Positions 15,345 to 64,000 of a DNA stretch of 64,000 nucleotides are shown here, piece by piece. A program made the translations under genes and the position numbers. Source of the DNA: an uncultured Planctomycetota bacterium (GTDB lineage: Bacteria > Planctomycetota > Planctomycetia > Isosphaerales > Isosphaeraceae); NCBI GenBank assembly GCA_963845755.1, contig CAWJTV010000034.1, positions 64,001-128,000 on the forward strand, given 5' to 3'. Numbering within the stretch: the first letter of the stretch is position 1; every line of letters begins with the position of its first letter. Below the pieces are notes generated by a model. It saw only the letters and a list, made by a program, of their open reading frames with translations. It ran no database searches and was not told the origin of the DNA.

Positions 15345-19054
<3,710 letters not shown>

Positions 19055-51814: not shown

Positions 51815-52190
51815 GGAACAACCCTCGCCGCGGAAACGCCGACACTCGCTCATGCACGATCAGGAATACTCAGGCGCCCCTCGCTGCGTTGGTCAGATGG
51901 TTTCTTCGGCGCGTCAAAGGCCAGCGTCGGTCTGCGCGGCGCCGAGACTGATGCTATCATAACGAAGAGCGGCTGTCTTCGAGAAGGAACTGAGCGTGAC
52001 CAGGCATGAATACCCGGATGAGGTCTCGCCGTGAGCGCGGAACCGGGCGAGTGGTCACCAGGATTGCGAGGAGGCCATTTCCGGCAGGAGACTGGCACGC
52101 CGCAGATTCGGAGTCGGTCCCCTGCGGGAATTGGCTCGCAAGCCGCTAGCGTCTTCTCAACCAACATACCGTATCGAAGTGGTGAGCCGA

Positions 52191-52726
52191 ATGATGTCCG
52201 ACGATCTCCAGGCCATGTACCGCTACCTCGACACGTTGACGGCCGGGCCCAACCTGTCCCGTCTGCTCGAAGAATTGTCGCGATTCGAGATCAACCTTGA
52301 CGACCTGTCCGAATACATGCACTTCGCGGGGAACGGCTACAAGCGCAACCTCGTGCGCTCTCGCCGAATTACCAGGCCTGGATGCTCTGCTGGAAGAACG
52401 GCCAGCGTTCGCCAATCCACAACCATAGCGGGTCGGCGTGCGTGGTGCGCGTGCTGCGTGGCACGCTGACCGAGACGCTCTTCGAGATAGCGCCGAACGG
52501 CCATGTCAAGGCATCGTTTTCGCGCGATTTCGCCGAGGGTAGCCTGATCGGCAGCGAGGACACGGACATCCACCAAGTCTCGAACTTGCAGGCGGAGGAT
52601 GCCGACCTTGTGACACTACACGTTTACGCGCCGCCACTGACTCGGATGGAGACGTATTCGCTCTACGACGTTAGCCGCGGCTACGAGGTATGGGAACCGG
52701 AGTTCAGTGATGCCGCGGGAATCTGA
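52191..52726 (+). CDS. Cysteine dioxygenase family protein (frameshift near 52365)
   Basis: YKRNLV, CWKNGQRSPIHNH, IHQVSN, TLHVYAPP. Confidence 0.88.
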
Positions 52727-52804: not shown

Positions 52805-53760
52805 TCAAAGTCCCCGAGGTGGTTCACATAACAGTCGTCGATGATCCTCGCGAGCGATGTTTTCGCCGGTGAGGATGACACAAATCGGCTCCTCTAGCTC
52901 TTCGGCGTGAGTCTGGACATAAGCCAGGGTGATCGCGCTCGACGGTTCGACGACGATCGCCTGAGTCTCGAAAAGCGCTTCAGCGCCGCGCGAATGTCTC
53001 CCTCCGGGACCAGGGAGACTGTCACGCCCGCTTCCGCGATCGCCTGCTGCACCTGGGAGTGGGGGATCTCCAGGATCAGACCGTCTGCGATAGTCGTCGA
53101 GCGTGCGTGGTCGAAACGGGCGTACTTCGGGTAATTGTACGGCTCGCAGCCGAACAGCCGGACCGGGGCCGGGTTGTTCCGCAGGTATGCCTGCAGGCCC
53201 ATGAGCAACCCGCCGCCACCGACCGGAAACACAAGCGACCGGCAATCGGGAAGGTCGTGCAGGATCTCGGCAGCGATGGACTGGTAGCCGTCGGTCCAGA
53301 GCGGGTCCAGGTGGGGATGTACGAAATAGCCCCCGCGTTCCTTGGCGAGGTCGGTGGCGCAGCGAAGGAGGTCGCTGCCCCCGCCGGCAATCTTGATCAA
53401 TTCCACGCCCAGGGCCCTCAGCTTCTCGTCCTTGGCCCGGGCGATGGTTTGCGGCACGACGCCGGTCATACTGAAGCCGAACGCCTGCGCGCGGTCGCCG
53501 CGCCCAGGGCGGTGTTCCCCATCGACGGCACGATCAATTGCCGCGTGCCCCCTTCCCGAATCAAGGTGCTCCAGCAGATGCACCGCCCCGCGAATCTTGA
53601 AACAGCCCGAAGGGGCAAGGAACTCGCACTTGGCGTGCACGTCCACTCCTGGGAAAGAGGTTGCCCAGGCGGATCATCGGCGTCGGCACAAGGGGAAGCA
53701 TGGCGGGTCTCTCGGCAGCAGTTGGCATGCAAGAACGCCCTGTTGTCGATGGTACTAAGT
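52805..53760 (-). CDS. PLP-dependent threonine dehydratase/serine racemase-like enzyme (several frameshifts; start uncertain)
   Basis: KCEFLAPSGCFKIRGA, SMGNT, FPVGGGGL, TIADGL, VEPSSA, LTGEN. Confidence 0.8.
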
Positions 53761-53818
53761 CCGCCTGAAGTGCACCAGACTCGATGAGGGCGCACCTCCC
53801 GGCGCCCCGTGCATATCG

Positions 53819-54017
53819 TCAGTTGATCAGACTATCATGTCCCCGCGCTGGTCCCGTAGGGAGCTTGTTCAAGTCAACGTTGAAGAACGGGTCTACCTTC
53901 ATGCCGTCGGGGCCGATGTGGACCAACCGGAAGTAGAACCGCCCGGAGTGGTCGAGCGTCGAGAGCAGTGAGTTCATCACGTACATCCGCTTGCCGTCGC
54001 CGGTCACGTGCATCATG
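53819..54017 (-). pseudogene. Orphan 3' fragment of a selenium-binding protein (SBP56/methanethiol oxidase-like) gene
   Basis: MMHVTGDGKRMYVMNSLLSTLD...GPARGHDSLIN; colinear with 63687-63886, no upstream part. Confidence 0.85.
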
Positions 54018-54556: not shown

Positions 54557-55682
54557 TCACGGAGAGAGACCGCGGATCTCCGCTTCCTCCCAAGCGACGT
54601 ACTTCTCAGGATCCTTCCAGAACTTAACCCACGCGGAGTTCAGGAGCGAATGAACTTCGTCGGATGTGCCCGGCTCCGCCAGCCGACAGTTGACCGCGGA
54701 CGTGCCTTCCCGTGCGAGACGTACGATGCCGTCGATCAGATGGTCCGGGTAGCAGCGGTGATACTCCGGTTCCGGTTTTTGCGCCAGTTTCCGCGAGGAG
54801 CTCACACCACTTCACGGAGATCGCCGACGCTTCGACGCCGAAGCCGCCAAGTTTCAGGGCGCTCAGCATCGCCCTCATGCGGGCATCATCGGCGGGGTGA
54901 GAGGCCGCTCGGAACACCGGCACTTCGAATGGATCGTCGCCCCGCTTCGCTGTCAGGTGTAGATGAGACCAAGCGTATGCCGGCCCAAGGGTGTTCACGG
55001 CGAAGAGGTCGCAGAAGAACTCCTCGGTCCAGATCTTCACCCACGACTCGCGCCACTTCCTGAGCATGAACGCCGGTCGCTCGGGGCCGCGTCTTCGAGC
55101 TTCCTTCGCGACCTCCCCTGCGATGTAGGACAGCGCCTCCGACATCGCGTTGAAGACCGCCTCTTGATAAGGCTCGACGATCGGATCGTCTTCCTGCTGA
55201 GCGAGAGGATGGCCGAGCTCATGATAGAGGTCGGGGAGGTGGAGGAGGAATCTACCCTCCGTGAGCGGAACGAAGAGAAGGTTGAGCTCGGTGTTGACGC
55301 AGAAGTACTGCTGCGAGAGTGATGAGACGACGGGAGCGGCGAGCGGATACTGGATCTCTCGTCGGATCTTCTCGAGCAGTTGGGTGAGATGGTGATCGTC
55401 CCCCGCTGCACGACTCAGCGCGGCGATGCCGGTGCTTTCCAGGATGTCCAGGTCCGAGACGATCCGGCGGAAGGCCCTGAACCGCTCCGGCTGATTCGCG
55501 GGATCGAGGTAGTCCGCATCTTCAAGCAGAGAGCGGAGCTGATGCAGGTGGTCCTGGATCTTCCTGTGGCAGGTTTGAGAGAGCGCGTCGTAGTCCCTCG
55601 GCAGGCGCCGCGGGATCTTCGCGACGAGATGCCTCGCACGGGCGATGAGTTGGTGGGTTAACCCGGTCAGATAGTCGTTCAC
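54557..55682 (-). CDS. HEXXH zinc-metallopeptidase-like protein, about 375 aa (frameshift at T-run near 54780)
   Basis: LYHELGH (55209-55229), then WTEEFFCDLFAVNTLGPAY and SHP; GTG start overlaps the upstream stop (GTGA). Confidence 0.75.
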
Positions 55683-56044
55683 ACCCCGCGTCCCCTCATC
55701 TTGCTGAGGAGATCCGACCTCTCATGTTCGATCGCGAGTGCGATGTTCTCGAGGCGCTCGACGAGCGTCGGCTCCACGTCCCGAGAAAGCAGAGCATCGC
55801 CGAGCGCGGACAACTCTCGGGGGTTACCCGCTTCGTCTGCGTGGACGAGGACGGCGAACACCTGCGATGCAAGGCTCTTAGCGTCGCCTCTTCCCGCCGC
55901 GATCAGAAGGTCGGCGAGCCGTTTTCTCCTGGGGTCAGAGGGCACACTCTTCCCGACCTTCAAACGCAAGATCACCTCGTCGAGAAGCTCGCCGTACTCA
56001 CGCACCCGGGAGTAGAGCCCGGAATACAGCCCGGAATGGCTCAT
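55679..56044 (-). CDS. Hypothetical 121-aa helical protein coupled to the Argonaute gene
   Basis: ATGA overlap with the pAgo stop and GTGA overlap with the next gene. Confidence 0.75.
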   Translation of the reverse strand: MSHSGLYSGLYSRVREYGELLDEVILRLKVGKSVPSDPRRKRLADLLIAAGRGDAKSLASQVFAVLVHADEAGNPRELSALGDALLSRDVEPTLVERLENIALAIEHERSDLLSKMRGRGV

Positions 56045-58404
56045 GAGTGGACCTCCTCTGACTCTTCAAAATCGAGAGCGTCAGCGTCGTACTCGCTTGC
56101 GTCCTCGCCGAGCCGGCGATCGGTTAGCTTGAGGGTGATCGGATACCGAGTGCAGTCCTCCGGCCTCGTCCAGGCGAGAGCGGTGAGGTCATAGAGGTCC
56201 TCGAGGGGAGCTCTCGAAGTCCAGACTCCCCTCGACGTACCGGAGGTGGAGCGGCTGCACCGTCCCGTTCCGGCTGAACGCTCGCCCGGTGGCACAGAGG
56301 TATGCATCGTCTCCGCCGGCAAAGTGGTAGCACCCAACCTGAGGGTTGGTCACGAAATCGCGGTGGCCGTTCGAGGTGGAGACGTCGAAGAGCCTGAGAC
56401 TCGTGCGCGATGTCTTCCAGATCTCGAGCATCGTGATCGTGGCGTCCGGCTCGATCGTGCCGTCTTTCTCCAGCTCCGCGAACGCCCGCTTGAGCCCTTC
56501 GCGTTCGGATGACCAGAGGCGCCCATCTCGGTGGATGACGATGTGCCGAATCGGAGTGCCGGTTGCCGCCTCCTCCTTGATGATCTCCGCGAAGTACTTC
56601 TTCACCTGATCGGCGAGGAGACGTTCCTTCTGCCGAGACTCGTGGCACCGAGTCCGGACAAGGCTTCCGTTGCCGGCCACGACGGTGAAACCTGCGGTGT
56701 TCTGCTTGACGTCTATTCCGACCGTGACGTCGGCGTGGAGCGGCGTCGAGAGTACGAACGGCCACTTCTCGTTCGTGAGAAGGATCTTGTTCAGCGCGAC
56801 GTTCCGGAGGTAGCCGGAGAACTTGCCACGCTTGTCGTTCCGGACTCGGTTGAACGGCCTTCCGTCTCTGCCGTGCGCGAGCTCGTAGCATTCGCGGCCC
56901 ATCGCCGAGTGATTGACGGCGGCGTACACGTCGAGCTTCCTCAATTCTCTTACGACCATCGCGGCGAGTTGATCGTGCTGCCGATGCCGACGATCGCTCG
57001 TGTGATGGATCATGACGAGCGCGAAGCCGTCTTTTTTGCAGTGCTCCTCGGCAGCCGCACGAATTGCATTCCCTTGGTCGACGAATGTCTTCGGACCACG
57101 GTCGTTGTACGGCACCACGATCGGGTCGTACCCGCCGCCCTGCGGATAGAGTTCGTCTACGACCCGCTTGAGATCCGTAAGGAACTCACCGCCCCAGCTA
57201 TCCGCGACGCTCTGCGGGAGGAAGAGGTATTGCCTGTCCAGCCTGTCGCGCGAGTAGAAGCCCGCGCCCAAGTCGCGGAGGAGCTCGGCCCGGGTCCGTC
57301 CGATCATGTCGAGCGAGGCTTGCTGCGCCCGGGCGTTCCGCGGATCGAGACGATCCGATCGTTCCCGAACTCGTAGTCGGGGAGGACGAACATCTTGTGA
57401 GGGACGCTGACCGGGACCGGAGATACATCCAGCACGAACTCGCCGAATCTGAGCCGGCGGAGGAACTGTGCGGCGTAGCGATGGATCCCTTCGCGACGCT
57501 CGTGCGGCCTGAGGATCGTTCCGCCGTGATGCCGACCTGCTTCCTCGAACTTCGTGTCGATCACCGGATAGCAGAGCCCAGCCGGCGCACCCCTCAGTTC
57601 GCCCTGATTGCTCATGTAGGAGACGACGGATGCGTTGTTCGGGAGGTTTGCAAGCTCCTCGGGGACCGGCTTCTCGGTCTCGGCGAGAATGTAATCGAGG
57701 AGCGTAACGCGCGTACCGTTACGTTGGATGAGAATCTCGCTCGCGGTCAGGTCGTTGAATTCGTGGAGGTGGACGACGTACCACCGATGGCCGTAGCGGT
57801 AGACGCAACGGCTTCCGCGCCATCGCCTAAAAGCCGCCCGGTCCATGTGGAGCGGGAGCGGCTGGCGACTCGCAAGCCTGTGCTTGACGTTAACGCAGAG
57901 CCCGATTCCCCCGTCTGGCGTGACGATCGCTCGGACGGAAAAGCCCGGGTAGCGGACGACATTCCCGGAGAGGATCGTCGGGGTCTTCTCGAAAAACGGC
58001 TCTCCGGAGCCAGGCTGCCACAGAGTCGAGTTGGAGTTGAGCGGCGTCTGGACGGTGAAGTTCACAAACCGGAGGCAGATCTCGTCGTTCTCCGGATTCC
58101 GCTCGGTATAGTCGAGCGTCCTCACTCCGGGGACGCGATCGAAGTACACTGTCCGCCGCACGAGTTGATACGGACTCGGCGGCTCTGGTGCGTCGTCGCG
58201 CAGCACGAGGTACGGTTCGCCTTCGCGCTCGACAACCGTCGCTGGCGTGTGAGTCGCGTAGCTCATCCTCCGGGCGATGATCTGGCGGTTCTGGTGGTAC
58301 TCCGACTGCTCCGAGTGGAGGCCTCGAATTCGGTACAGGCGGTAGCTCGAGGAGAGCTGGGCGATGTTCGTGATCGGGAAGACGTTTGTCTCGAGCTTGC
58401 TCAT
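56041..58404 (-). CDS. Long prokaryotic Argonaute, about 787 aa (frameshifts near 57330 and 56205)
   Basis: N-terminal LETNVFPI; PIWI motifs VGIDVK, IVIHRDGR, NPQVG, GTVQPL, DLYDLTALAW, YPITLKLTD. Confidence 0.9.
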
Positions 58405-59335
58405 ACATCGTCCTCCCAGCACATCACGCGATAGGAGCAGCGCTGGCACGCTTCTGGCGAGGCCGCGACCGGAAAATCGCATGGTCGGAGATCCGTGCTC
58501 TTTCGCCCGTCGAGGACAAGGAGCATGTCCGTCGCGGTCGCGGCGATGTGGGCGTCGATATCCGCGGCGTCATCCTCTGCGAGGGCGTAGGATCGCGTTC
58601 GTCCCAGCAGCAGTTGTACCTCGAGCAGGCGGACGTCCAAGGGTTGCCAGCGTGACATCGACTCCGGGAAGTCCTTGTGGGCGTTGCATCGACATAGCGC
58701 GAGCGCATATGTGGCGAGCTGAAGCCTCGCCTCCTGAACGCCGAACGCGTGCACCTTCCAGTCAACGATGAGAGGTGGTGCATTCTCGTAGAACGCGATG
58801 AGGTCGGGAACGGCTCGCACGGTCATCCCGGAGTGCTTGAACATCAGGGCGGCGTTGCGCGACCAGGTAGCTCGCTGCTTTCAGCTCCGCGGCGAGCTCT
58901 CTCATCTGAAAGAGGTTCTTCAGCGCGAGCTCGACCTCGGTCCAGGCGACGTTGATTTCCTCCTCATTGAGGGTCCCTTCGTAGGCCAACGAGTAGAAGG
59001 CGACGAAATCATCTCCCTCCTTGGTGGGGATGAGATCGAGATCGTCGAGGCGCTGCGTGCGGCCGTACGCGAGCTGCCCGTCAAAGAGCTCCCGCGCCCT
59101 CTTGACGGCCAACTGGAGCGTCACGGTCCTGCGCTCGCAACTGCGGGACGATGAATGAGCTGATGACGTCGTTAACGATGTTTCCACGCCACGAACTTAG
59201 GCTCTGGAGCTTGCCGAGCAGATATGCCCGCCGGCGCTCGCGGTCGTTCGCCCTGTGACTCGCGAGGACGTTCTTGAAGTACCACTGACGCTGGCATCTC
59301 CTAAACGTCTTGCTCTCCGAGATCGACCAATACAT
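58401..59335 (-). CDS. Cas4/AddB-like PD-(D/E)XK nuclease with Fe-S cysteines, about 310 aa (frameshifts near 59130 and 58850)
   Basis: N-terminal S...FRRCQRQWYF, VPDLI, IVDWK, QLATYA, C-terminal CQRCSYRVMC. Confidence 0.85.
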
Positions 59336-59694
59336 CAGCGCTTCCTCCCCGCATGCTTCGAGCGGAGGAAGGCGAGATAGTCCGCGAGGGCATCCTCCTC
59401 CTCTTTGGTCGTGGGGCCGAGGCGGGCCGAGAGCCGCGAAGCTGATTCACGTCGCTTGGTCGGCCCGGGTACAGGATATCCCGCGTACTCGAACAGGGTC
59501 TCGTACGGGACCTCATAGAGCTCGCTCAGCTTGTGGAGGTGCGCCGGGGAGGGCTCGCGGATCTTCCCGGTTTCAAGCTGGCTGAGATACGCGTTTGAGA
59601 TCCCGGTCTCAGCCTCGACGGCGCGTAGGGACAGGCCCTTCGAGCGGCGTAGCACGGCGAGGAATGAGCCAAGGCGATTGGGTTCGGTTGACAT
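59335..59694 (-). CDS. Xre/Cro-family HTH transcriptional regulator
   Basis: LRRSKGLSLRAVEAETGISNAYLSQLETGKIREPS; the stop overlaps the nuclease start (TGATG). Confidence 0.92.
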   Translation of the reverse strand: MSTEPNRLGSFLAVLRRSKGLSLRAVEAETGISNAYLSQLETGKIREPSPAHLHKLSELYEVPYETLFEYAGYPVPGPTKRRESASRLSARLGPTTKEEEDALADYLAFLRSKHAGRKR

Positions 59695-59877: not shown

Positions 59878-60096
59878 TTATGACTCGTGCTTGGCAACCG
59901 GCTTGCCCGCCCGCCCGTTCACGGGCCGCTGCGGCTTCTTCCGGTAGAGTCGGGAGGACTCGAAGTAGCCGTACCGATCCGTGTACGGATCGTCCTCGGC
60001 GACGTAGAGTCCCTCGATGACGCTCTTCATCCGGAGCGGCTTGTCGGCAGGAAGGAGGACGCCGGCGATCTTCTTCTTCGGCGTTTCAGAGGCCAT
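59878..60096 (-). CDS. Hypothetical 72-aa basic protein
   Basis: Strong SD (AAGGAG) between the patatin-GAF stop (60111) and this ATG. Confidence 0.6.
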   Translation of the reverse strand: MASETPKKKIAGVLLPADKPLRMKSVIEGLYVAEDDPYTDRYGYFESSRLYRKKPQRPVNGRAGKPVAKHES

Positions 60097-60461
60097 CGGC
60101 GTATCTCCTTTCAGTTGAAGAGCTTGCGGATCACGTTTTCCCAGACGAGCAATCGCTCGAGCACCTCAGAACGAAGGTTCGCGCCGGCGAGGTCGGAAGG
60201 CGATCCGGGCTCCTCTAACCAGTTAGTATCGGCAAGAGGCGTCACGGAGTCAATGGACAAAGTCCCAATCGGCTCGCTCCCGGGTTGCTTTTCCGCCTCA
60301 GGATGATCCCAGATTGGCACGCTGAGCATCGACTTGCGGTGATCTGGGACGCGGCGGTGCTGCTCCGCGGTCATCCTCCATGGCGTTGGGTTGACCGCAG
60401 CGGCGCTCGAGGTCGTGCAAGCAGGCCGCCTTGCGCTCCACGCCCGTCCGCTGCATCCGGC

Positions 60462-62042
60462 CAGTGAGTTCAGGGTTTTCCTCTGGCTCTAGGGGGCCCC
60501 GTCTTTTGCTCATGTGCTTGCTGGAGAACCCGGTAGGTTGACGTATGGTTGCCGAGCACACGCTTCTTGACTTTCTGATGACCGCCACGGCCGGAGCTGG
60601 GCGCTTTCCACCAACGGTCGCTCCAGGCGCGCGCAACCGCTCCCGCAAGTACGTGCGCACCTCACTCGCCGTCGGCACGGCGCCCAGCAACGACAGCAAC
60701 GTCTTGACCTCAACCAACTCGCTGACCGACACCATTTGCCGCTCCACGTCACCGAAGAGCTTCTCGTTGGAGATCGCCTTGGCCTCACACTCTTGATGCG
60801 ATGCCAGGTGCGTCCGCACGACTTGCAGGGCGTTGTACAGCAGCAGGCAGAACGACAACTGGAACAGGACCGCCTTCGGCTGCGTGCCGATGAGGTGCTT
60901 CAGCGAGAACACGTCGGTGATCTGCTGGAAGACCGTCTCCAGACCCCAGCGACTCTGATACGTCGAGAGCATCGCCACGGCGGGATACGTCGTCTCGTCC
61001 AACAGGTCGGTGATCACGCCGAACTCCTTGCCGTCGGCCAGATGCTTGGTGATCCGGCGCACGTACACGCGGTCGGCCTTGGCGACCTTGCCCAGCCAGC
61101 CCCACTCCTGCACGATCCGGCGCCCGTCGGCGTCGCGGGTCTCCTGCGCCGGCCGGGACGCATCGGGAACGAACGTCGTATTGCTGCAGTAGCGGATCAG
61201 GAAATGGCCGCCGGCCTTCAACACCTCCCGGGGAAAACTCAGGTTGCAGTAGAGTCGGTCCAGGACCACCAACCACAACTTCTCCGGCCGGCCAGCGCCG
61301 CCAACTTCGGCAGCAGGCCCTCGGTGAGAGCCGCTTCACCGGCTTCGCCGTCGAGGTGGCCCACCATCGCGACGGCCAGGCCCGTCCGCAGGTCCAAGCC
61401 CACCGACGCCCGCGCACCGAGGATCCCCGCCTGCAAGCCGCGCAACGGCTTGAGGAGCCGGCGAACGTGCTTGATCGCCTTGCCGTCGGCCCCGAAGACT
61501 TCGAACCCGGCCCAACACGCCGGCAACGGCTCCACGGCCAGGGTCTCAGGCAGGACCGCGTTGAGCCGCTGGGTGCCTTCGGCGAGCAGGGCCTCGCTGA
61601 GGGGCAGGGGCAGGTTCCCCAACTTGTCATAGGACGAGGTGATCGAGACCGGCAGCGTGCCCTGTTCCTGGGCCCGCGTGAAGGCCTGGTAGCCACTCCC
61701 CTCGTGCTCGATCAAGGCATCGGTGATCAGATGGGCCAGCGTGCGGAACTTCAACTGCTTCTCGAAGCAGGGCCCGCGATTTCGCGCCCAGAGATCATCC
61801 AGCCACGAATCCGCCATCGCGTAGTGCAGCAACCGCCACACCGAGTCGGCCAGAGGAAGCCGACTCAGCACCTCGGCGGCAAACGGGGTGTCGTTGAGGA
61901 CCGAAGGACTCCGGACGGCTGCGGAAAAGACGGCGACCTCCATAACCGAAGGACTCCTGAGAGGACCGAAGGTGCAATCCGATGGGTATTTATGATACGG
62001 ACCTCGGATCCGCGGTGGAACGCCAAGACCCTGAACTCACTG
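60462..62042 (-). mobile_element. IS4-family insertion sequence (1581 bp)
   Basis: TIRs cagtgagttcagggtttt and aagaccctgaactcactg (17/18); 12-bp TSD gctgcatccggc at 60450-60461 and 62043-62054. Confidence 0.92.
60470..61943 (-). CDS. IS4-family DDE transposase (frameshifts near 61280 and 60630)
   Basis: ADGK, VLDRLY, YQSRWGLETVFQQI (YREK-like motif). Confidence 0.88.
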
Positions 62043-63686
62043 GCTGCATCCGGCGGTCTCGGCGATCTCGAGCGTGTGGTCGGAATCCATCTCATTCGTC
62101 GCCGGGTCGAACATTCCGAACGAGTAGGTGACTATCCTCGTCGGCGTACCGTCGTCGAAGGTCCGACCGGTCCGTAGCATGATGTGTGTCCGGACGTCCT
62201 CTGCGTCGGTGCTTGATTCGATATCCTGTGCCACGGCGAATAAGACGGCTTCGAAGAGCTTGGGGTCACCGTAGCGTGCTTGCAATTGACGCTGGATGAC
62301 CCCCTCCCGGATCTCGGTCTGGCCGAGGCCGTGCACTCCGAGTTGGTGGACGAAGTCCTCGGCCTGGTTATGGCGTTGAAGGATCTCGAGGTTGTCGAGG
62401 AACTCGCTCGACTGGTGGTAGCCGAGATTGAAGAGCTTGCGCCGACCATCGAGGCCGATCTTGAAGTCGAGGACGTCGAACTTGTTCGGGATGCGAATGG
62501 GGACGTGGATCACGTCCTTCAGGACCTTGCGGAGGAGCTCATCCCCAGCGTCGAGCGCGGTTGACACCATGTCCTTGAGAAACCGCTTGAGGTCGTAGTT
62601 GGTCGCGGCTTCGGGGGAGGCCTCTGAAGTCAGGTCGAACGCGAATACCGGGTGTCTTGTCCGCTGCTGCTCGTCGTGAAAGAGGAATGCGGGGAGGTTG
62701 CTCGCCAAGCCTCCGTCAACGAGCCAGCACTGGCGGTTCCGGTCTACCGGCTGAAACACGAACGGGTAGCAGGTGGACGCACGAACGGCGTCCAGCACCG
62801 AGCTGCCGTAGAGCGTCTCGTCCTTCGAGAACACGACCGGTTGACGACGAGAGACATCCGACGCGACGATCTTCAGGGGGAAGCAGCGGCGACCATTGCT
62901 CCGGACAGCCTCGAAGGCAGCTAGGCTCGCGAAACTGATGTCGCTCGCTTCATCGAGTGACGGGAGCTTGGCAGCGATCTTCTTCAGGAGGAAGACCTTG
63001 AGCACCTGACCATCATCAACTCCGAACCGTTCCATGAGCGTCTGCTTCAGAGTCCCGTAGCCGAGGTACGCGCCGAGTGCCCGCGCGACCGAGCCCAGCT
63101 TGCCGAATAGGCCCTTCTCTAGGCCCCCAACGACGGCGCCAATCTGGGACTTGAACGCTTCGACGTGTTTGCCGTTGTCGTTGAGGAGGCTCGTGAACTC
63201 TGTACCTACGAGGATGTCCTCGATCTCTTGTCCGCTGTAGCCCACCGCGGCGAGCGTCGCGATGACGCTCCCCGCAGACGTGCCGCCGAAGCCCACGAAC
63301 TCGACTCGCTTCCGCTCTGCAGCCTTGAGGGCTCCGGCGAGCGCCGCTCCGAGGACACCACCACCGTCGAAAATCGCATAGGCTTTCATCAGTTCGGTAT
63401 TCCTGCTCTTTCGCTTCGTGGCGCCCTTCGAGGTTGACAGTTCAGTACCCATCGGTCGCGAAGACGTGCTCGACGTACAGGTCGTGTTGACGCTCCAGCA
63501 GGCGGAGACAAATGGACATCTCCTCGATCCAGACGAGTTGACGAGCAGCCGGTCGTACCGTTCGGGGAGCGACGACACCGTGTAGCATGATCGGCAATGC
63601 GGAGACTCCCTCGTGCAGACGCTCCGGAAAAGGTTCCGAAAGAGGTAGTGGAGACCTTTTCCTCGCGGGGGGCATGATGTGATTTG

Positions 63687-64000
63687 TCAATTGATGAGCA
63701 TGTCGTGTCCCCGAGCCGGCCCCGTCGGGAAATGGTTCAGGTCAATATTGAAGAACGGGTCGACCTTCATCCCATCGGGGCCGATGTGGACCAGTCGCAC
63801 ATAGAATCGTCCCGAGTGGTCGAGCGTCGAGAGCAGCGAGTTTGACACGTACATCCGCTTGCCATCGGCGGTCGACGTGCATCATGTTGGGCTGGACGCA
63901 AGGGGCGACGGTGCTGAAGAGGCGAGGATGCTCGGGGTCGGAGACGTCCCACTGCTGGATCGAGTTGTCGCCGAAGCAGCTCACGTAGAGGTACTTGTCG
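63687..64000 (-). CDS. Selenium-binding protein SBP56/methanethiol oxidase-like, 3' part (runs off window; 1-nt frameshift near 63874)
   Basis: YLYVSCF, QWDVSDPEHPRL, PNMMHV, DGKRMYVSNSLLSTLD, GPARGHDMLIN. Confidence 0.85.

Follow-up and report, generated by a model that had tools for sequence, protein, structure and literature searches.

A long-A Argonaute of the PliAgo/RslAgo group with a probably complete catalytic tetrad and two conserved downstream genes in a planctomycete island operon

The Argonaute (pAgo) gene in a 64,000-nucleotide stretch of DNA from an uncultured Planctomycetota bacterium of the Isosphaeraceae (GenBank assembly GCA_963845755.1, contig CAWJTV010000034.1, positions 64,001 to 128,000; hereafter the window) most likely encodes a catalytically complete long-A protein of the PliAgo/RslAgo (D-R; DNA guide, RNA target) group, as the third gene of a five-gene island operon, with the gene intact in the living organism and both downstream genes being fixed parts of the system. 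The intact tetrad and the operon suggest that the window pAgo is likely an active slicer with several partner genes, as a sequence-only reading of this DNA had proposed and as has already been published for this group.

Family Assignment and Catalytic Tetrad

All four residues of a DEDD tetrad are present on the minus strand, exactly where the sequence-only reading had placed the four motifs (Table 1). They align without gaps beside the motifs to the PliAgo tetrad D563/E592/D626/D762 (PDB 7R8F), with GIDVK corresponding to D563 and K565, RQRE/RQKE to E592, HRD to D626, and KLCD/KLTD to K759 and D762; this mapping was made by counting residues along sequence alignments to PliAgo. The alignment to a published tetrad, in pieces that match PliAgo at E-values down to 1.8e-67, places these residues at the PIWI catalytic positions. 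As described in the text on PliAgo, changes to the first and third tetrad residues abolish cleavage (Lisitskaya et al. 2022, PMC9360449). Using an intact relative as the query, we retrieved 345 pAgo homologues and inspected the best 120, of which 119 carry a complete DEDD; Asp 1, Glu and Asp 3 are each found in 120/120 and Asp 4 in 119, the remaining sequence being truncated. The Glu finger, about which the sequence-only reading had been least sure, is thus correctly assigned as the E592 equivalent. Within the same 120 homologues, the group-specific lysine equivalent to K565 is universal, and that equivalent to K759 is found in 117. The claim that the tetrad is complete holds for the residues themselves; as assembled, no single open frame in the window contains all four.

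Table 1. Features of the window, in window coordinates
Feature	Position	Strand	Remarks
rpoB	~15366-19015	(-)	in two frames as assembled
Left direct-repeat copy, 188 nt	53818..54005	.	3' part of SBP56-like gene
Orf5, ~375 aa	54557..55682	(-)	HExxH from 55223; Glu ~55022; His-Pro 54899; break near 54777
Orf4, 121 aa, helical	55679..56044	(-)	ATGA overlap with pAgo
Long pAgo gene, ~787 codons	56041..58404	(-)	PliAgo/RslAgo group (probable); acidic C-terminal tail
Catalytic Asp 4 (PITLKLTDRR; KLTD)	56121-56119	(-)	= PliAgo D762
D-R-group Lys	56130-56128	(-)	= PliAgo K759; in KLTD
Catalytic Asp 3 (HRDGR)	56527-56525	(-)	= PliAgo D626
Catalytic Glu finger (RQKERL)	56626-56624	(-)	= PliAgo E592
Group-specific Lys	56707-56705	(-)	= PliAgo K565; follows catalytic Asp 1 in GIDVK
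Catalytic Asp 1 (GIDVK/VGIDVK)	56713-56711	(-)	= PliAgo D563
PliAgo-type MID pocket	56810..57004	(-)	H 57004 = R467; H 56911 = H498; M 56902 = S501; Y 56812 = Y530
Cas4-like PD-(D/E)XK nuclease (probable ACE2 type)	58401..59335	(-)	Pfam PF12705, PADLOC Aga_Cas4-like_Nuc; ATGA overlap with pAgo
XRE-type HTH regulator, first operon gene	59335..59694	(-)	TGATG overlap with nuclease; start codon inferred from homologues
IS	60448-62056		32-nt inverted ends; DDE transposase split in two frames
Patatin-like phospholipase, upstream of operon	62037-63578 and 59887-60374	(-)	frame runs into IS end
Right direct-repeat copy, 188 nt	63686..63873	.	82% identical to left copy

The window protein has the six domains of a long pAgo and the greatest similarity to PliAgo and RslAgo, and PADLOC pAgo_II matches across all three pieces into which the gene is split. 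PliAgo is the best solved relative of each piece, at E 2.5e-51 for the N-terminal, 1.8e-67 for the MID-PIWI and 2.9e-10 for the C-terminal piece. When a profile of 107 homologues was compared with solved proteins, PliAgo was matched at E 1e-213, followed by two PIWI proteins of 795-811 aa (5e-93), VbAgo (2e-40), KmAgo (8e-18) and CpAgo (2e-7). PliAgo and RslAgo are described as long-A proteins (PMC11162769), and this literature answers the question of long-A or long-B membership in favor of long-A. A long-B protein of the RsAgo type, or an inactive sensor that has lost its tetrad, was rejected because DEDD is complete in the window and in 119 of the best 120 of 345 homologues; long-B pAgos are described as all lacking an intact catalytic tetrad (PMC11162769, PMC12094033). 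In a tree of 34 MID-PIWI rows, PliAgo not among them, the window piece falls within a 32-row clade that includes RslAgo (support 100/99), with a sigma-70-type and a cyanobacterial protein outside it; the exact place of RslAgo is unsure because of its long branch. The closest named locus comes from an uncultured Schlesneria bin (68%).

An RHSY pocket in the MID domain is the defining feature of the PliAgo group, and its H498 and Y530 are reported as invariant (PMC9360449). The window pocket reads H-H-M-Y, keeping H498 and Y530, which are each conserved in 120/120 of the best 120 of 345 homologues, and differing from PliAgo in R467 (H) and S501 (M). That two of four RHSY residues differ counts against placement in the PliAgo group; both positions vary among these same homologues, and the active RslAgo also lacks both residues. 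The resemblance to the PliAgo/RslAgo group (PDB 7R8F-7R8K) otherwise extends over the tetrad positions, K565, K759, H498/Y530, a length of ~790 aa, the acidic tail, and an upstream PD-(D/E)XK nuclease and HTH gene. PliAgo and RslAgo are reported to be active DEDD proteins whose operons also encode a Cas4-like nuclease and an HTH regulator; given a DNA guide, both cleave RNA at position 9/10 (Lisitskaya et al. 2022, PMC9360449). The same specificity is predicted for the window pAgo, from which DNA-guided RNA cleavage, not DNA cleavage, would be expected. That it is instead a conventional DNA-targeting (D-D) long-A slicer is very improbable: TtAgo and CbAgo share the DEDD, and cyanobacterial pAgos with Cas4-like ACE1 partners target DNA, but the closest solved relatives of the window protein all target RNA (PliAgo and, more distantly, VbAgo), a PliAgo-type H/Y pocket stands in place of the (Y/H/R)KQK MID motif, and both lysine signatures are present. 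A second set of D-R proteins, PnyAgo, MbpAgo and VbAgo, is described as sharing the DEDD, the DNA guide and RNA target, and the upstream PD-(D/E)XK nuclease; unlike the window protein, these have an HKQK-type MID pocket, a standard 10/11 cut and a sigma-70 factor in place of the HTH gene, and VbAgo is far less similar to it than PliAgo.

Frame Breaks in the Assembled Operon

As assembled, the window copy is frameshifted, unlike PliAgo, and is split into three pieces by breaks near 57327 and 56207, neither of which the sequence-only reading reported. The former divides N-PAZ from MID-PIWI; the latter puts Asp 4 in a different frame from Asp 1, Glu and Asp 3, which share an ORF at 57307-56189, while the N-terminal half (58404-57304) lies in the frame of Asp 4. 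Placed end to end, the pieces span an intact homologue (residues 4-359, 360-730 and 730-782, at 61%, 69% and 83% identity, respectively), with no nonsense codon inside the homologous pieces. The nuclease gene also breaks, near 59130 and 58851, as does orf5 (Table 1). We consider long-read sequencing or assembly errors the most likely source of the breaks in pAgo, and the gene in the living organism to be very likely intact.

No public run searched for reads of the source individual shared half of the window's words. The breaks were compared with contigs from runs X1 and X2 (two studies; two of four related runs listed), whose strains are ~95% alike to the window and are other strains than the source individual. 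At 57327 and 58851, what separates both X1 and X2 from the window is precisely the frame-relevant indel; this also holds for X1 at 56207, where X2 has no coverage, and for X2 at 54777, where X1 has none. One X1 contig covers all four tetrad codons, and its sole gap is the indel at 56207. Moreover, 54 of 55 metagenomic loci that cover the whole pAgo gene encode it in a single open frame that contains the four motifs, a count biased at the first Asp by search patterns that included its motif. Programmed frameshifting and a split-gene design were rejected on this count and on the lack of pAgo breaks in near relatives.

Since X1 and X2 are other strains, these data are compatible with a recent true inactivation in the source, by which the cassette would yield no full-length Argonaute and the complete tetrad would be a relic. 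We regard this as quite unlikely. The breaks are located in short base runs (GGG, CCCC, AAAAA) or a GC dinucleotide repeat, the pAgo pieces are free of nonsense substitutions, and the end branch of the window pAgo is short (0.26 against a median of 0.34). The essential rpoB gene is likewise split, which indicates that the assembly is indel-rich and that other split genes in this genome are therefore probable errors. Between seven copies of one IS, ~1.9 indel events/kb were counted, part of them perhaps genuine decay. In a check of conserved genes, 126 ORFs of two relatives served as queries; 34 passed identity and coverage filters, and 12 of these 34 showed frame switches (14 switches in 46.7 kb), giving a lower bound of 0.3/kb in a sample that may include a few antisense shadow frames. 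Against this lower bound the operon is enriched, having five breaks across three of its five genes in ~5.2 kb where ~1.6 would be expected (P~0.02), which favors real breaks, as do the IS copy and diverged flanking repeats of the island and the break at 59130, where X1 differs by the frame-relevant indel but X2 (depth 2.6) shows no difference. The near relatives, however, lack the pAgo breaks.

Operon Organization

The five genes encode an XRE-type HTH regulator, a Cas4-like nuclease, pAgo and two further proteins, Orf4 and Orf5, with overlapping junctions throughout (in order, TGATG, ATGA, ATGA and GTGA). The regulator matches PADLOC capH (E 5e-7). The nuclease is ~310 aa long with one N-terminal and three C-terminal cysteines, and is found by tblastn with the Runella nuclease (E 9e-34), which, with that of Pseudooceanicola, is classed as ACE2 (Bobadilla Ugarte et al. 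2025, PMC12094033). Its size and cysteine pattern fit ACE2, and, given this homology to a listed ACE2, the system would be of the APACE2 type (long-A pAgo with ACE2). A plasmid locus encoding RslAgo has the same five-gene layout, four of its five genes matching the window by tblastn, and its orf4 is matched by profile (E 1e-10).

Conservation of this layout was scored in metagenomic neighborhoods of the best 74 of 397 relatives, several of them near duplicates, and only where a locus had enough flank. Across these, the nuclease precedes pAgo in 49/49 scorable loci and the HTH gene in 45/47, orf4 follows pAgo in 65/65, and orf5 is present downstream in 55/56. A sample of 400 other genomes of the phylum yielded no match to the operon at E<=1e-20; this absence suggests that the operon is patchily distributed and is consistent with horizontal spread. 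No relative was found among 69 pattern matches in viral contigs, and a promoter scan gave one match against 0.7 expected, which is uninformative.

Among the homologues, two nuclease-pAgo fusions (P0078 and P0118, 1104-1109 aa) depart from the nuclease frame at nearly the same position, are missing the nuclease's C-terminal cysteine cluster, and may be artefacts or natural frameshift fusions. These, and an orf4-orf5 fusion (P0153), were dropped as evidence, as their junctions resemble out-of-frame sequence.

Two Conserved Downstream Genes

The text of the PliAgo/RslAgo study names the regulator and nuclease alone as neighbors (PMC9360449), and our literature search, with figures and most subscription journals beyond its reach, found no description of orf4 or orf5. 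That both are fixed parts of the system, following nearly every homologue including RslAgo, forms part of the overall reading that we consider likely.

Orf4 matched no family in Pfam, PADLOC or NCBIfam and gave no usable atlas match. It is fused in frame to the C-terminus of pAgo in 4 of the best 120 of 345 homologues (P0055, P0060, P0072 and P0093, clean fusions from several sources), which form one clade (100/99) and therefore reflect one event. PliAgo is reported to withstand deletion at its C-terminus, and has been assayed with GFP fused to that end (PMC9360449). Orf4 would most likely be an adaptor bound to pAgo.

In Orf5, H154, E155, H158 and E221, together with a His-Pro pair, are invariant in 120/120 close and 112/112 distant full-length homologues. 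This pattern is that of zinc peptidases such as CapP, whose corresponding residues are given as H96, E97, H100 and E129 (bioRxiv 10.1101/2022.04.27.489752), and suggests that Orf5 is zinc-peptidase-like. Five of 115 family members match Peptidase_M78, all below the cut-off (best E 8e-4), and the nearest named atlas clusters are Peptidase_U49/M48, at scores (0.78-0.79) that are often chance matches. The Orf5 model (pLDDT 95) comprises a helical bundle and an almost all-helical HExxH domain; fold searches with the whole model returned matches to the N-terminal helical bundle or nothing significant, and sequence searches gave no significant PDB or PHROG match. Neither GAF nor CapP was matched. 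The C-terminal part is predicted to be all-helical, unlike GAF. Three homologues (P0255, P0271 and P0276) carry C-terminal extensions: two match a CHAT (caspase-like) domain, one above and one below the cut-off, and in the third the extension is 400 aa long and includes a second HExxH-like motif.

The operon resembles the CapH/CapP and IrrE/DdrO modules, described as pairing an HTH repressor with an HExxH...E protein in one defense operon (bioRxiv 10.1101/2022.04.27.489752); the capH match of the HTH gene and the weak Peptidase_M78 matches among Orf5 relatives are further likenesses. Unlike CapP, described as a peptidase-HTH-GAF protein, Orf5 has the two-part helical architecture above, and, unlike in CapH/CapP, it also occurs in operons that lack an XRE gene. 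One such locus, of the sigma-70 type found with PnyAgo, MbpAgo and VbAgo, has a 132-aa gene, which the orf4 profile fails to recognize, followed by one for an Orf5 homologue (E 5e-70). Sigma-70-type operons also carry a gene of conserved size (~180 aa) between the sigma factor and nuclease genes (L104 1978-2523, L105 1959-2501); it has no Pfam family and is possibly an anti-sigma factor, and no similarity to the window HTH was found for the 181-aa gene that adjoins the L104 sigma factor.

In close relatives, the guide is reported to be bound through a metal-free pocket and RNA to be cut by the DEDD with a DNA guide, at a shifted cut site (PMC9360449). By analogy to ACE1, the nuclease of the window system may supply guides, though only APACE1 (cyanobacterial, DNA-targeting) has been characterized, and its authors warn that the conclusions may not carry over directly to APACE2 (PMC12094033). 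The target of pAgo would be invader RNA, and Orf5 may be a zinc peptidase serving as a switch or an effector, with the repressor or a host protein as its substrate. We tentatively propose, as a possibility short of even chances, that D-R pAgo systems have an unrecognized second half: Orf4 would dock on the free C-terminus of pAgo and link the loading of guides, or the recognition of target RNA, to HExxH zinc peptidases of a new family, which would cleave either the XRE repressor, in a CapH/CapP-like feed-forward switch driven by single-stranded DNA, or a host protein, thereby arresting the infected cell. The occurrence of orf5 where the XRE gene is absent weakens the idea that the repressor is its substrate.

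Another division of labor, in which an intact pAgo serves mainly as a sensor, the pairing of guide and target, whether or not slicing follows, activates the HExxH protein via Orf4, and proteolysis rather than RNA cleavage protects the cell, seems unlikely. It would account for the near-constant presence of orf4 and orf5 behind pAgo, the invariance of the HExxH, downstream Glu and His-Pro in all 112 distant Orf5 proteins, the pAgo-orf4 fusion clade, and the retention of orf5 in the sigma-70-type operon. However, DEDD is kept as strictly as HExxH (best 120 of 345 pAgo homologues), which argues for selection on slicing; PliAgo and RslAgo alone are reported to cut RNA in vitro (PMC9360449); and the peptidase family matches are all below the cut-off.

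The Island and Its Neighborhood

The direct repeats bound an insert of ~9.7 kb that holds the operon, the IS and the patatin gene. No further copy of the 188-nt repeat was found elsewhere in the genome, and no integrase was recognized among the ORFs scanned inside the insert. Six further copies of the IS, 97-99% identical, occur elsewhere in the genome. A short ORF across the IS (60114-60374) may be the cut-off C-terminus of the patatin gene, and a CBASS-type phospholipase also adjoins a Rhizobium operon (L028). Beyond the left repeat, a PLP-dependent (threonine dehydratase-like) gene (52805-53646, minus strand) and a cysteine dioxygenase-like gene (52131-52726, plus strand) each appear split across frames. 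On Bacteroidota plasmids, genes for multiubiquitin-domain and ThiF (E1-like) proteins adjoin two unrelated operons of D-R pAgos (L027 8232-10373, L104 1-984).

Biological Significance

Judged by its sequence, the window pAgo would be an ordinary representative of a bacterial Argonaute type already in the literature, one directed against RNA by short DNA guides. An intact DEDD beside partner genes adds little in itself, as members of this clade have already been purified, mutated and crystallized; the protein is one further candidate programmable RNA nuclease. The main interest lies instead in the two undescribed partner genes. The in vivo role of DNA-guided, RNA-cutting Argonautes is left open in the text of the study of PliAgo and RslAgo, whose assays used the Argonaute alone (PMC9360449). 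If orf4 and orf5 are constant members of the operon, defense would have to be assayed with all five genes together, for which intact cassettes exist, e.g. the Runella plasmid locus. Were the proposed second half borne out, these systems would join a protease to an Argonaute that is an active slicer.
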